This document shows, piece by piece, positions 37,514-45,236 of a stretch of 64,000 nucleotides of DNA. The stretch is from Spirochaetia bacterium (GTDB taxonomy: Bacteria; Spirochaetota; Spirochaetia; WTKD01; G963693115): positions 16,821 through 80,820 of the forward strand of contig CBDAKK010000003.1 of the NCBI GenBank assembly GCA_965196605.1. Reading direction: 5' to 3'. How positions within the stretch are numbered: the stretch's first letter is position 1; each line of letters starts with the position of its first letter. Below the pieces are notes generated by a model. The model had not been told where the DNA came from, did not search any database, and saw only the letters and a list, made by a program, of their open reading frames with translations. A program made the position numbers and the translations under genes.

Positions 37514-39129
37514 CATGCATGGCGGTGATAAACATGCAGAGCCCTTTATCGCAAGCAAGACACCGCGAACAAAACGCAGACTTACCTTATAAACAAAGAC
37601 CACGCTTACAACACTTAAAAGTAAAAAAGCGCACAATCAATGACAACTAACAGCCCCCATATTAATGGGTATTGAACTAAAAAAAGAGGAGTGAGCAAAA
37701 TGTGACACTGCTCACTCCCCTCCTTACCTTTAAAAAGCACTACAAATGTCTAAGGCATGCTTGGGCATACTTTGCTCGTACAAGCTTGAAACCCTATTCT
37801 TGTGAATGTAGACCATTGTGATGCTTCGTTATAATTCGTCTCTTTAACACGCTGTTGCACACCAACTATTGAAGAGTTATGAACACCTATTCCCGTAATC
37901 TTTATTTTTCCCTCACTAGTAATGCTAGGTGTACCCGGATACTGCTTCCCATTATCCTTCAGTCTGATTACCCGGTATTCATACATTGTAGGATTATACT
38001 CGAATATTGCTTCTGATTCTGCAGTATTCGTAGTATAACCTACACGAATTATTGGCATCTGAATTATTGCTGACCACAAGAATGGAGCACTTGGAGCATC
38101 TGGCTTATATTTTTGAATAGTAAATTTAAAACTTACTGCTTTTTTATTATATTTTTGATGATATAGGAAACCACTAACAATGATTTCGAGAACAGCACCA
38201 TCTCTATTACATATCCCAACAAACTCAGCCCAAGTCCCAAGCCGCCCATCTGCAGAATACGGGTTAAGCAATATGTAAGGTCGTGGAGAAACAGAAATGT
38301 TGGGGTTTAGTAATAGCTTTGTACCTGCAGGCGCGTCTTTAATAATATCTGATTCTATGTCGCTAACCTTAAATCCCCTGGACGTGTCATTATAAAAACC
38401 CTTACACGCATTCTTTCCAAATGTGTAATCGACTGCCCTCGCATTAGTACTCATAACTCCGCGCTCAACAGTATATTCAACCCTAACTTTTTTATTCTCA
38501 TAATTAGGGGCAGCAAGTTCAAATTCTATAGTACTCTTACCTAAATCTCCAGTTTCCTGCAGAGAGAAAACACCATTGTTTTCAATTTTTCTTACAGACT
38601 TCCCACTAATAGAAATGCCTACAATGTCTGTTATTGGTGATACTGGACGGTTGAGAAGTATATTAGCATCCATTTCTTGTTGACCAGGTTCACCGTCAAT
38701 AAAATCCTTGAGTATTTCTTTTTCATCATACTTTTTCAAATTTTCTGTATGTTTGACTACTTTGTTTTTTCCTGTCACATTAGCTGAAAATTTCGCTTTA
38801 GTAAACTCAACCTTCACAGCATCTGACCACACCGATTTACTGTGAGTATTTGTACTCTTAGACTGCCGCTTTATAATTCCCACATATGGCGCCGTTGCGC
38901 TTATTACTCCATGATTAATAGCAATCTTGTTACTATCCGGTTTTATTTCATACTTATACTTATTTGCATCATAACCGCTTATGTTTATAGCAGTCCCCCA
39001 CGCTACCTTAGACTGCGATAATGTCACTGGACCCGGCTTCTTCTGTGTTGCGGGACTTATTATAAAATCTATCGCTACGGGTTTACTGTTATAATTCGGA
39101 TTCTGTAATGTTACCTCCACCGTACTTGT

Positions 39130-42100
39130 ACCTGCCTGGACGTGACTCACGGTCTTGCTTCGCGCGTTAACACTCACACTCGTTCCACTGGTCAACCTAA
39201 TAGACGCTATGCTGGTTCCCGTTGGCTCATCGTCTATAAGTCCTAACAACGCTGTTGCGTCATACGTCTCCCCTGCCTTGTACGCTACCCTTTCTGTTCT
39301 CCCTTGCACATTACTTCGAAAATTCGCTCTATCAAACGTTACTGTTACACTCTTCGACTCCTTCGCGTTATACTTATCATCTCCCTGCTTGGTAGCTTTC
39401 ACTACTACATTTCCGGGACCACTCGCCGTAACCACGCCAGCACTTGTTACTCCCGCTCCTAATGCTGTTGTGCGACTTGAAACTTTCTCATACGTCAAAT
39501 TACCACTGCCAATACCTTCCTTGCCTGACACAAGATTCAGCTGTACGCCACCACTATTCCACGGCTTACTCTGTGCTGGCACCGCTATCTCTAACGCGCC
39601 CTGCTCTTGCTTCGTAAAAGTAATTGTCACACCATCCGACAAACCTGATGCACTATGCGTCTTCGTTGCCTTTAAGCTTCGCTGTATCGTCGCTGTGCCG
39701 GGCCCACCATTTGCGCTTATTGTTTCACCATTACGCGTGACTACTTGTCCACTCGTTGACTGTAACACATACTCATATTTACCAGCATTGTAATCATTTA
39801 TTCTTACATCTGTTCTCCACGCTACCGAAGACTGCGATAATCTCACTGGACCCGGCTTATTCTGTGTTGCGAGACTTATTATAAACTGTATCTCTACGGG
39901 TTTACTGTTATACTTCGGATTCTGTAATGTTACCTCCACCGTACTTGTACCTGCCTGGACGTGACTCACGGTCTTGCTTCGCGCGTTAACACTCACACTT
40001 TTTCCATTTTTAAGCTTTATAGACGCTATGCTGGTTCCCGTTGGCTCACCGTCTATAAGTCCTAACAACGCTGTTTCGTTATACGTCTCCCCTGCCTTGT
40101 ACGCTACCCTTTCTGTTCTCCCTTGCACACTATCTAGAAAATCCGCTCTATCAAACCTTACCGTTACACTATTCGACTCCTTCGCGTTATACTTATCATT
40201 TCCCTGCTTGGTAGCTTTCACCACTACGTATCCAGGACCACTCGCCGTAACCACGCCAACACTTGTTACTCCCGCTCCTAATGCTGTTGTGCCACTTGAA
40301 ACTTTCTCATACACAAGGACTCCGTTGCCACGGCCTTTTTTACCTGCTGCAAGGCTAAGGTGTACGTCTTGACCCCACGGCGTACCCTGTACTGGCACCG
40401 CTATCTCTAACGCGCCCTGCTCTTGCTTCGTAAAAGTAACTGTCACCCTATCCGACCACAGCGATTTACTGTGAGTACTCGTTACCCTTAAACGTCGCCG
40501 TATCGTCGCTGTGCCGGGCCCACCTTTCGCGCTTATTGTTTGACCATTACGCTTCACTCCTCCACTCGTTGATTGTAACTCATATTCATATTTACTAGCC
40601 TCGTAATCATTTATTCTTACATCTGTTCCCCACGCTACCGAAGACTACGATAATCTCACTGGACCCGGCTTATTCTGTGTTGCGGGACTTATTATAAACT
40701 GTATCTCTACGGGTTTACTGTTATACTTCGGATTCTGTAATGTTACCTCCACCGTACTTGTACCTGCCTGGACGTGACTCACGGTCTTGCTTCGCGTGTT
40801 AACACTCACACTTTTTCCATTTTTAAGCTTTATAGACGCTATGCTGGTTCCCGTTGGCTCACCGTCTATAAGTCCTAACAACGCTGTTTCGTTATACGTC
40901 TCCCCTGCCTTGTACGCTACCCTTTCTGTTCTCCCTTGCACACTATCTAGAAAATTCGCTCTATCAAACGTTACTGTTACACTATTCGACTCCTTCGCGT
41001 TATACTTATCATCTCCCCGCTTGGTAGCTTTCACTACTACATTTCCGGGACCACTCGCCGTAACCACGCCAGCACTTGTTACTCCCGCTCCTAATGCTGT
41101 TGTGCCACTTGAAACTTTCTCATACGTCAAATTACCACTGCCAATACCTTCCTTGCCTAGCACAAGATTCAGCTGTACGCCACCACTATTCCACGGCTGA
41201 TTCTGTGCTGGCGCCGCTATCTCTAACGCGCCCTGCTCTTGCTTCGTAAAAGTAATTGTCACATCATCCGACCACAGCGATTTACTGTGAGTATTTGTAC
41301 TCTTAGACTGCCGCTTTATAATTCCCACATATGGCGCCGTTGCGTTTATTACTCCATGAGCATTAATCCTAACGTTTGTAGTAGGTGGCACTAACCTATA
41401 CTCATTATTTGCATCGTAATTCCTTATACTTATCCCAGTCCCCCACGCTACCGAAGACTGCGATAATCTCACTGGACCCGGCTTATTCTGTGTCGCGGGA
41501 CTTATTATAAACTCTATCGCTACGGTTTTACTGTTATAATTCGGATTCTGTAATGTTACCTCCACCGTACTTGTACCTACACCGGCATGACTCACGGTCT
41601 TGCTTTGCCTGTTAACACTCACACTCATGCCACTGCTACGACTTATAGACGCTATGCTGGTTCCCGTTGGCTCATCGTCTATAAGTCCTAACAACGCTGT
41701 TTCGTTATACATCTCCCCTGCCTTGTACGCTACCCTTTCTGTTCTCCCTTGCACACTATCTAGAAAATTCGCTCTATCAAACCTTACTGTTACACTATTC
41801 GACTCCTTCGCGTTATACTTATCATCTCCCTGCTTGGTAGCTTTCACTACTACATTTCCGGGACCACTCGCCGTAAACACGCCAGCACTTGTTACTACCG
41901 CTCCTAATGCTGTTGTGCGACTTGAAACTTTCTCATACGTCAAATTACCACTGCCAATACCTTCCTTGCCTCGCACAAGACTCAGCGCTACTCCACCTCC
42001 ATTCCACGGTTTAATCTGTGCTGGCGCCGCTATCTCTAACGCGCCCTGCTCTTGCTTTGTAAAAATAACTGTCACATCATCCGACCACAGCGATTTACTG

Positions 42101-44000: not shown

Positions 44001-44537
44001 TTAACCTTCGCACTTCCTGCTCTCTTGTGTGTAACGCTCTTATTTCCCGCTCCTACAATTGCTACGCTATTACCACTCCCCATCATCAACTTATTAATAC
44101 TCGCACCAGCTGGCTCTCCCTCTATCATCCCCAATAAATCACCTTCATGGTACGTCTCTCCATCTGCATAAACCGCTGTATATACCTTCCCAACTACCTT
44201 ATCACTCATCACTCCTTTGGTAACCTTAAAATCAATCTGGATATCCTTGTCTTTGTAGTTTGGCGCACCAAACGTAATCGTATACCTCGCTTGCCCAGCA
44301 TTTCTTATTTCTAATTCTTTACTTCCCAAATTCCAATTCAACACCTGCCCTGCTTGCCCACGTATCTCTATCTCTTGGGCATCTACTACCCTAAAACCAG
44401 CTCGTCCAGCAAATACTCCTGTCACAGCACTCCTTATTTCAGCCTCTGTAAAAACCGCTCCATCCGCTGCATATTGCTTGTTAATAGTTGTTTGACTAGC
44501 TTGCAGATCTCCTCCTTCTCCCGGCGTAACCCTAAAC

Positions 44538-45236
44538 TCAACCAATGCATTGTGCGTTTCTGCATTGTCCTTCTCTAGCGTTACCGCATACCACGTACCC
44601 CCCCACGCTATTAATATCAAATTCCTTAGTGCTCTCATTCCAAAGTACTGCTACCTTCCCTGCTGGATTTTTGATATTCCTAAGGTTATATCCGCTAAAA
44701 TCTTTTCCTAACTTCCTCCCTATTTCTCCAATTACTTCTTGCTTATCAAAACTTTTAGATGTCTCGCTATATTCCTTACTCACTCTTACAATCGCTGGAG
44801 CTTTATCACTCGAATTTATCCCAATAACTAGCAAATACGATGCTCTCTGCTCCTTGTACTTCCCTTGCGTCCCTGCTTTATTCACTATAATCTTGAAAAT
44901 CCCGGGCATCAAACCAAAAAGCTGTAGCCTCTTTCCTTGTTTATATTCTGCTTCTTTTGCCTTATCATCACCTATCGTTAGGTCAGGGGTATTTCCTGAA
45001 GATACATTTGCAACCTTCACAGAAACTCGAAGCGGCGCTTTGTCATCAGCATCAACCGTTACCTTAAGATCCTGCACAAATATATTGTTTATTTCCGATA
45101 ATCCCTTCACCACTGTTTCTTCTTCAAACTTAAATGTCGTCCCTTCGGAAACAGCTTTTGTATTTGCGGGTACGTCATCTGGGTTCTTTGGTTGCTTTTG
45201 GAGGGCTTGCAATGGTGGACATCCCAATAAAAACAA
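44538..45236 (-). CDS. N-terminal lipoprotein segment of the giant repeat protein, currently out of frame with the body
   Basis: TTG start. In-frame upstream codons read KVKIFLISSVVL-FLLGCPP (classic lipoprotein signal plus lipobox). Its last 100 nt overlap the start of ORF 42911..44638 in the +1 frame across the G7 tract. Confidence 0.55.
   Translation of the reverse strand: MFLLGCPPLQALQKQPKNPDDVPANTKAVSEGTTFKFEEETVVKGLSEINNIFVQDLKVTVDADDKAPLRVSVKVANVSSGNTPDLTIGDDKAKEAEYKQGKRLQLFGLMPGIFKIIVNKAGTQGKYKEQRASYLLVIGINSSDKAPAIVRVSKEYSETSKSFDKQEVIGEIGRKLGKDFSGYNLRNIKNPAGKVAVLWNESTKEFDINSVGGYVVCGNAREGQCRNAQCIG
44598..44604 (-). other. homopolymeric G7 tract (C7 on the plus strand) at the junction of the lipoprotein N-terminal ORF and the repeat body
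   Basis: The upstream frame reads AGC GTG GGG GGG TAC. The downstream frame reads GCG TGG GGG GGT ACG. A G6 tract would fuse the two, giving ...SVGGTWYAVTLEK. Confidence 0.8.

Follow-up and report, generated by a model that had tools for sequence, protein, structure and literature searches.

Does the long repeat-bearing locus of this Spirochaetia bacterium encode a working giant surface protein, several separate proteins, or the remains of a single gene? The locus lies in a 64,000-nucleotide stretch of contig CBDAKK010000003.1 (assembly GCA_965196605.1), which we call the window and from whose first letter all positions are counted. An earlier sequence-only reading had taken the locus as a working gene of ~2400 codons for a giant lipoprotein adhesin built from near-identical immunoglobulin-like (Ig-like) tandem repeats. 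In our analysis, the conceptual gene covers positions 37753-45266 of the minus strand and comprises ~2,511 codons after frame repair, and it carries three definite lesions as well as a probable loss of the start codon. It seems likely that this is a recently inactivated, lineage-restricted giant lipoprotein gene that was formerly functional, a reading to which we give a probability of about 0.7.

Four open reading frames and an intact relative

The four minus-strand open reading frames (ORFs) described previously were all recovered, at 37750-40557 (935 amino acids, aa), 40645-42954 (769 aa), 42911-44638 (575 aa) and 44538-45236 (232 aa). A six-frame analysis gave four open stretches on this strand, running from 45314 to 44541, from 44650 to 42914, from 42963 to 40648 and from 40644 to 37753. 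The first three stretches each use a different frame, and the fourth continues in the frame of the third after one stop codon; two frameshifts and one in-frame TAG connect the four. Public databases hold ‘proteins’ of 544, 752 and 935 aa that correspond to pieces of the giant gene.

To find relatives, a profile of the repeat unit was scanned with HMMER against 1.84 billion representative proteins. Four close matches (P0001-P0004) were obtained, which are the three ORFs of the window and one further protein, P0004, and the family spans two genomes. In three word-indexed protein searches, nothing but the query's own ORFs or P0004 came up, and scans of genome-representative and JGI metagenome contigs yielded no relative of the giant gene. 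P0004 is an intact protein of 1,868 aa encoded on a 1.14-Mb NCBI/ENA contig. Its residues 29-201 align with the first ORF at 31% identity, and from residue 205 onwards it aligns with the second ORF at 64% identity over 567 aa. The C-terminal 348 aa of the window gene show a weak, colinear match to the C-terminus of P0004 at 23% identity. At both frameshift sites P0004 is uninterrupted, the site at the G run corresponding to its residues 201-205. Because this intact protein aligns across the four ORFs in order, they are pieces of one ancestral gene, which upholds the colinearity that had been proposed.

Lesions and the explanations they allow

The first codon of the signal peptide is ATA (45266-45264), and the first in-frame ATG, GTG or TTG is a TTG at 45236, inside the hydrophobic core. 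The start codon was therefore probably lost by a change from ATG to ATA, as far as the sequence allows this to be judged. The three definite lesions are listed in Table 1. At the first frameshift, the coding strand reads AGC GTG GGG GGG T ACG TGG. With six instead of seven G residues, the frame goes on as ...NSVGGTWYAVTLEK..., in which NSVGGTWYAV would match VGEAWYGV of P0004. Two G or C runs of seven or more occur in the window, and this G7 run is the sole one inside coding sequence. At the second frameshift, 11 nt that are missing from unit 2 of the repeat array are present in units 5 and 6; unit 5 reads GGCACA GCGACGATACG GCGACG. The lesion takes out exactly one GCGACG repeat plus its spacer and is thus a microhomology deletion, and P0004 is continuous at the equivalent place (GGPGAATIWRRLKATKTHSAS, GGPGAATIWRRLKATKTH). 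Recoding of the TAG codon was ruled out, TAG being the ordinary stop codon of 9 of the 45 window ORFs. Compared with its intact homologue, the locus accordingly shows the two frameshifts and the nonsense codon of a pseudogene.

The divergence of the six units bears on the age of these lesions. At least 382 substitution events have occurred among the units, for which 14.7 nonsense codons would be expected under neutrality, compared to one observed (Poisson P = 6.5e-6). Because of this deficit, it appears that the units diverged under selection for an open frame and that the lesions are recent. The indels between units are all 3 nt in length, with the 11-nt deletion as the sole exception.

It might be argued that the gene is intact in the organism and that all four lesions are mistakes of sequencing, polishing or assembly, the repeat array being hard to reconstruct. 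Homopolymer runs, to which the G7 run belongs, are classic error sites, and the array contains exact repeats of up to 282 bp. Moreover, P0003 is recorded on two contigs and P0001 and P0002 on one only; the array may have assembled differently, or broken, in a second assembly, and a break inside the array is one possible reason for this record. However, the four lesions are of four different kinds, and two of them (the start codon and the G7 run) lie outside the repeated part. The T of the TAG codon and the 11-nt deletion are private to single units, and since neither variant is found in any other unit, they do not stem from reads misplaced between units. The position of the deletion exactly between GCGACG direct repeats is a signature of biological slippage. 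In addition, ~45 other ORFs, over ~50 kb of the window, show full-length domain matches and no sign of frameshifts, and the 544-aa database product, which begins 3′ of the G-run site and ends at the deletion frameshift, is present on two contigs (209,485 and 299,798 bp). Judged by this pattern, the lesions are unlikely to be sequence errors, and we consider an intact gene in the organism unlikely.

More doubtful still is a phase-variable contingency gene that happens to be OFF in this sequence, with G6 as ON and G7 as OFF and the remaining lesions tolerated or recent. Poly-G tracts control the tpr genes in Treponema pallidum, and the G7 run is exceptional for the window, sits in the 5′ portion of what is a surface-type gene and needs to lose only one G to restore the frame exactly as in P0004. 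Slippage could not, however, reverse the 11-nt deletion and the TAG codon, and a G6 allele would still yield a product truncated at 778 conceptual residues. A canonical start codon is absent, seven bases are short for efficient slippage, and the tract has a single state, G7, in the one sequence examined. We see very little room for separate use of the fragments, that is, for a ~240-aa N-terminal lipoprotein translated from a non-canonical codon together with cytoplasmic or re-initiated downstream products. Although the promoter-like sites and the signal peptide are still there and the second ORF opens with the weakly signal-like MRALRNLILIAWGG, the first piece has no canonical start, the downstream pieces begin in the middle of a beta-sandwich domain and without proper signal peptides, and intact P0004 shows that a single protein is the ancestral state. 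Least credible of all is a silent-cassette archive for antigenic variation, whose units would donate sequence by recombination to an expression site at another place. Like the Borrelia vls array, the window array has near-identical head-to-tail units with alternating conserved and variable blocks and a nearly continuous frame, in which no more than one stop and two frameshifts occur; in B. burgdorferi B31, the vls silent cassettes reportedly also keep a near-open frame with few stops and frameshifts. Unlike vls, the window array makes up the body of a gene that is otherwise complete, from promoter-like sites, signal peptide and N-terminal part to C-terminal part and terminator, and its orthologue P0004 is one intact ORF in another genome. 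No separate expression locus was found; among the 1.84 billion representative proteins, P0001-P0004 were the only close matches, and in all searched collections the only proteins with these units were the window's ORFs and P0004.

Some observations weigh against our reading of a recently inactivated gene. The G7 frameshift could have arisen as a homopolymer error or represent a single state of a tract that varies, the ATA codon could serve as a weak non-canonical start, and the two contigs with the 544-aa product may have been assembled from the same data. The ratio of nonsynonymous to synonymous substitution rates (dN/dS) between units is high (0.6-1.4), which fits diversifying selection or conversion noise as well as some relaxed constraint. 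Finally, surface exposure, lipidation and adhesion of the intact protein are properties that we infer.

Repeat units, their exchange and their fold

The repeat array is real and far beyond chance. Direct-repeat analysis found direct repeats in five to six copies with spacings of 819, 813, 813, 813 and 811 bp; Tandem Repeats Finder did not report the array, the longest period handled by this program (500) being below the unit period. As the sequence-only reading had it, six units of ~271 aa are flanked by degenerate units on both sides. Each unit consists of three beta-sandwich domains, A-B-C, and is 269-273 aa long. Hidden Markov models (HMMs) of the sub-domains were used to map the conceptual protein, giving the signal at residues 1-18, the six A-B-C units at 457-2089, a further domain A at 2090-2162, a C-like domain with an insertion (C′) at 2164-2282 and weak C′′ and A′ remnants thereafter. 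Among the leading degenerate units, the clear C-type domain covers residues 353-456 (E = 5.3e-21 with the domain-C HMM) and the weak C′ residues 298-358. The trailing part, which had been described as a unique C-terminal domain, is instead made of degenerate copies of the same domain types: a domain A at 38800-39018, the C-like domain with an insertion at ~38440-38796, and then, as far as the stop, weak remnants of C-like and A-like domains. The N-terminal region is 31% identical to P0004 for residues 42-218 and 64% identical beyond.

Table 1. Features of the giant gene and its flanks (window positions; 5′ to 3′ on the coding strand)
Feature	Position	Strand	Remarks
Two sigma-70-like promoter matches	45307..45377	-	TTGACG-17-TATATT at 45377-45349; TTGTCT-18-TATAAT at 45336-45307
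Lipoprotein-type signal peptide with lipobox-like end, (I)KVKIFLISSVVLFLLGC	45213..45266	-	sequence read directly
N-terminal region, no known domain, conceptual residues 19 to ~297	44375..45212	-	homologous to P0004 N-terminus
G7 homopolymer (C7 on the + strand), frameshift	44598..44604	-	
Degenerate leading units, conceptual residues 298-456	43901..44374	-	weak C-like and clear C-type domain
Unit 1, A-B-C, 272 aa	43085..43900	-	most divergent of the full units (69-77% DNA identity with the rest)
Unit 2, A-B-C	42277..43084	-	domain A broken by the 11-nt deletion
11-nt deletion, second frameshift, unit 2 domain A	between 42941 and 42940	-	alignment columns 145-155
Unit 3, A-B-C, 271 aa	41464..42276	-	
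Unit 4, A-B-C, 271 aa	40651..41463	-	95% identical to unit 3 overall
Unit 5, A-B-C	39838..40650	-	second codon TAG
Nonsense codon TAG in unit 5	40647-40645	-	alignment column 4; CAG (Gln) in 5/5 other units
Unit 6, A-B-C, 273 aa	39019..39837	-	unit used for the AlphaFold2 model
Trailing degenerate part	37753..39018	-	stop at 37750-37752
Intrinsic terminator	37680..37725	-	18-pair hairpin then U7, ~25 nt past the stop codon

The signal sequence KVKIFLISSVVLFLLGC has the charged, hydrophobic and L-x-G-C layout of lipoprotein signals, and no canonical start codon stands before it. A lipoprotein signal had been assigned to the 232-aa ORF; a lipoprotein-type signal is present, but IKVKIFLISSVVLFLLGC lies mostly upstream of the TTG start of this ORF and no ATG, GTG or TTG precedes it. 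A DctP-like lipoprotein in the same window carries the signal MKKIAFLLLSILAMGMVSC, which is comparable with IKVKIFLISSVVLFLLGC. The two promoter matches are consensus matches only, and the total count of such matches in the region is not above that of shuffled sequences. In the intergenic region 45315-45506, A8, T8 and T8 runs surround the promoter-like hexamers and could modulate promoter spacing. The terminator hairpin has a free energy (dG) of -26.3 kcal/mol (z = -5.6), and 0 of 200 shuffled sequences were equally stable. With this strong terminator and the promoter-like sites, the flanks of the gene still look intact.

Whole-unit DNA identity ranges from 69 to 95% across the six units (U1-U6). 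The 85-95% reported in the sequence-only reading is true for the pairs U3-U4, U3-U6, U4-U5, U4-U6, U5-U6 and U2-U5, and too narrow for the full set. The nearest neighbour of a unit depends on the domain. In domain A, U3 and U4 are 99% identical and U2, U5 and U6 form a second type (76-85%). In domain B, U3, U4 and U6 group at 95-97%, and in domain C it is U4 and U5 that share 99%. Within units, blocks of 99% identity adjoin blocks of ~60%. Sliding windows showed units 3 and 4 to be identical across the first ~210 alignment columns, and the longest exact repeat of the array is found between these two units. Since this repeat extends over only 282 bp, the units can be distinguished, and nothing suggests a collapse or an artificial duplication by the assembly, which had been named as a possible objection. 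The mosaic fits the ongoing gene conversion that had been suggested, and, judged by identity patterns, would be the expected outcome of gene conversion together with unequal crossing-over.

The arrangement of P0004 is N - C′ - C - ABC - ABBBC - AB - C′C′C′ - A′. The two genes differ in the register that was expanded: 271-aa A-B-C units in the window gene versus 93-aa B units (B-B-B) in P0004. Both types of domain A occur in both proteins, and these types therefore predate their split. The three tandem domain-B copies of P0004 (residues ~793-1069, 93 aa each) are nearly identical. As called, P0004 begins MSAPPPEKPEP without a signal peptide, aligning just past the lipobox cysteine of the window gene; its true start may be upstream, or may also be damaged.

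On the plus strand, antisense ORFs of 167-221 aa appear once per unit (39155-39793, 41600-42103, 43194-43859). Their presence follows from the repetition of a purine-rich coding strand (GC skew down to -0.33), and none of the long ones (212 aa, 221 aa and others) was accepted as a gene, as they recur only because the units recur.

To assess the Ig-like character of the units, we compared them with known families and structures. The proposed HMM comparison with the Big_2, Big_3 and invasin families gave no family matched by the protein itself: in hmmscan, none of the four pieces reached a Pfam or NCBIfam threshold, and the Big_2, Big-like, Big_3 and invasin models were absent from the Pfam results for the four pieces even at E values up to 1. 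Matches to Cadherin_FAT4_N and MG2 were dismissed as sub-threshold noise. The motif LGAGVTSAGVVTASGPGNVVVKATKQGDDKYNAKES, with variants, is found in every unit. When a profile of domain B was aligned with the Big_2/Big-like repeats of P0006, hhalign gave a probability of 94.1% (E = 1.2e-7, 37 columns), and the aligned segment, GVVTASGPG...YNAK, is exactly the one that had been quoted as Big_2-like from the sequence. Of seven members of these repeats that were scanned, all seven match Pfam Big_2 and four match Big-like. The Big_2-like segment thus stands as a remote homologue, although it stays below the gathering score of Pfam Big_2. Remote profile matches comprised 389 proteins, nearly all of which matched through profile positions 60-170, that is, domain B; those tested carry Pfam Big-like, Big_2 or Big_3_5 domains, and the profile stretches on P0006 coincide with its Pfam Big-like and Big_2 stretches. 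Domain A, the shorter relative, aligned with domain B at a hhalign probability of 86%, and domain C had no relationship to A or B detectable by hhalign. In the 1.84 billion representative proteins, no relative of domain C beyond P0004 was detected and very few of domain A. A profile search of PDB sequences matched no solved chain.

The structure prediction suggested for one unit supports an Ig-like fold. An AlphaFold2 model of unit 6, built on an 8-row alignment, is all-beta with a mean predicted local distance difference test score (pLDDT) of 74.8 (~90 in domain C, ~80 in B and ~60 in A). Foldseek matched the model against PDB entries of cadherin extracellular (EC) domain arrays, the S-layer proteins Sap and SbsB, and SraP, with E values of ~1e-6; the model also resembles Rib, Big_2 and LigB folds. 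For the C-terminal 348 aa, AlphaFold run on the single sequence gave no usable model (pLDDT 32.6). By these models, the Ig-like reading holds for fold and remote homology and not for family membership. Domain B appears to be distantly related to the Big_2/Big-like superfamily, as judged by profile alignment. A and B are Big_2-like, and C, an Ig-like domain as well, represents a separate sequence type.

Neighbourhood, related systems and meaning

The LolC-like neighbour of the giant gene led to a syntenic locus in ‘MAG: Spirochaetia bacterium’ OZ245332.1 (L001). The genes for RF1, a PEGA-domain protein, FtsY, a 581-aa ORF, LolCDE and a His-phosphatase are 64-79% identical in L001 and occur there in the same relative order. 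Where the window has the giant gene, between LolCDE and the His-phosphatase gene, L001 carries a gene for a 490-aa S41 peptidase on the other strand; the giant gene is for this reason lineage-specific at the site. Recent horizontal transfer was rejected on composition, the GC content of the gene being 39-46% compared to a window mean of 45.6%. The adjoining ATP-binding cassette (ABC) system contains FtsX and MacB_PCD domains and belongs to the LolCDE/MacB type. A functional link between this system (45507..48770) and the giant gene had been suggested. Since L001 keeps this neighbourhood without having the giant gene, the adjacency is no evidence of a dedicated link, and the suggestion is unsupported. 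Any lipoprotein needs Lol. A LolA-like gene (24212-24985) and the LolCDE-like operon (45507-48770, FtsX/MacB_PCD permeases and ABC ATPase) are found in the one window, so that the machinery for sorting lipoproteins appears to be intact, in contrast to the giant lipoprotein gene.

Further repeats were seen in the window. Directly upstream of LolCDE, the 581-aa ORF (48772-50517) has no family match, is matched in L001 in two separated blocks only and contains a 138-nt tandem duplication (49721-49996, 91% identity, 46 codons each). A 292-nt direct repeat (16018-16309 and 17619-17910, 99% identical) flanks an NHL-repeat gene (16519-17589) and extends into the 3′ end of an aroD/aroE-like ORF (14580-16175) and the 5′ end of a class-II aminoacyl-tRNA synthetase ORF (17816-19138); it may be the mark of an insertion or duplication. 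Two non-coding gaps of unusual length, at 19139-19993 and 31928-33276, are filled by members of a single dispersed repeat family whose hairpin cores are of the G6/C6-C8 type. Direct copies lie at 19147-19318 and 19692-19863 (89%) and at 32464-32605 and 32874-33015 (94%), and the two clusters are mutually inverted (71-89%). Short ORFs in these gaps (e.g. ...HKCFVGELPPHPLWVRRG...) are translated repeat.

Among known systems, the Lig proteins of Leptospira (LigA, LigB and LigC) are, like the window gene, of spirochaete origin and have many Ig-like (Big_2) domains in tandem behind an N-terminal lipoprotein signal, which in the window gene is putative. Some serovars have ligC as a pseudogene and others as an intact gene (PMC3012076). 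Lig arrays differ in that they consist of single ~90-aa domains in 12-13 imperfect copies, whereas the window gene repeats a 271-aa three-domain supermodule with blocks of up to 99-100% identity. The resemblance to Lig- and Bap-like proteins that had been noted is architectural; the window gene has no Pfam Big_2 match and no match to a PDB chain, and it is not a homologue of Lig or Bap. The Rib/alpha-C proteins of streptococci and lactobacilli also have near-identical tandem repeats that fold as Ig-like domains, and their repeat number varies through recombination. They are, however, Gram-positive YSIRK/LPXTG wall-anchored proteins with ~79-aa single-domain units, whereas the window gene has no LPXTG motif, carries a putative N-terminal lipobox instead and shows no detected sequence similarity to them. 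Multi-repeat Big_2/Big-like proteins (PF02368, PF22359), such as P0006, a 2,127-aa GH9 protein with a type IX secretion system (T9SS) sorting domain, contain remote homologues of domain B; their repeats exceed the Pfam thresholds singly or summed, and the window domains do not. In SiiE, LapA and the Bap-like and RTX adhesins, tandem Ig-like domains form a very large rod from which a binding region at the distal end projects. Type I-secreted adhesins carry a C-terminal type I secretion system (T1SS) signal and have adjacent ABC, membrane fusion protein (MFP) and TolC genes, whereas the window gene has a putative N-terminal lipoprotein signal and its neighbouring ABC system is of the housekeeping LolCDE/MacB type, which sets it apart from this group. 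The Lig family is the closest analogue in architecture and phylum and Rib/alpha-C in repeat behaviour and fold, and the window gene is a member of neither.

As regards the protein before its inactivation, the ancestral product would have had ~2,500 aa, with an N-terminal lipid anchor (signal ending LLGC), a ~280-aa region without known domain and a rod of roughly 24 beta-sandwich domains whose core is formed by six tandem 271-aa A-B-C supermodules. At the textbook figure of ~4 nm per Ig-like domain, a lipid-anchored rod of this composition would be ~90-100 nm long. By analogy with Lig, Rib and cadherin-like arrays, its distal C-terminal domains may have been displayed at a distance from the membrane, where they would serve in adhesion or form a surface coat. 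Recombination would have altered the number and sequence of the units, with unequal crossing-over and gene conversion homogenising and shuffling them. In the sequenced genome the gene would then have been lost, possibly after a switch-off at the G run, and it is probably not expressed in this strain.

One could imagine that in strains with an intact allele the gene forms a self-contained variation system, in which the two ancient domain-A types, along with variable stretches of domains B and C, are reshuffled among six or more units by intragenic conversion and the G run acts as an on/off switch. We hold this to be improbable. If true, it would give an uncultured spirochaete lineage a size- and sequence-variable surface rod made from domain families A and C that are undescribed in databases. 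These two domains belong to no Pfam family; outside the two genomes, A is almost without relatives and C has none. What we describe is a nearly orphan protein of a well-known kind, seen as a pseudogene, and no new mechanism is implied. The hypothetical proteins of 544, 752 and 935 aa are pieces of this one pseudogene, rather than three genes or a working adhesin. The array is at the same time a clean small case of concerted evolution, in which the domains within one gene group the units differently.

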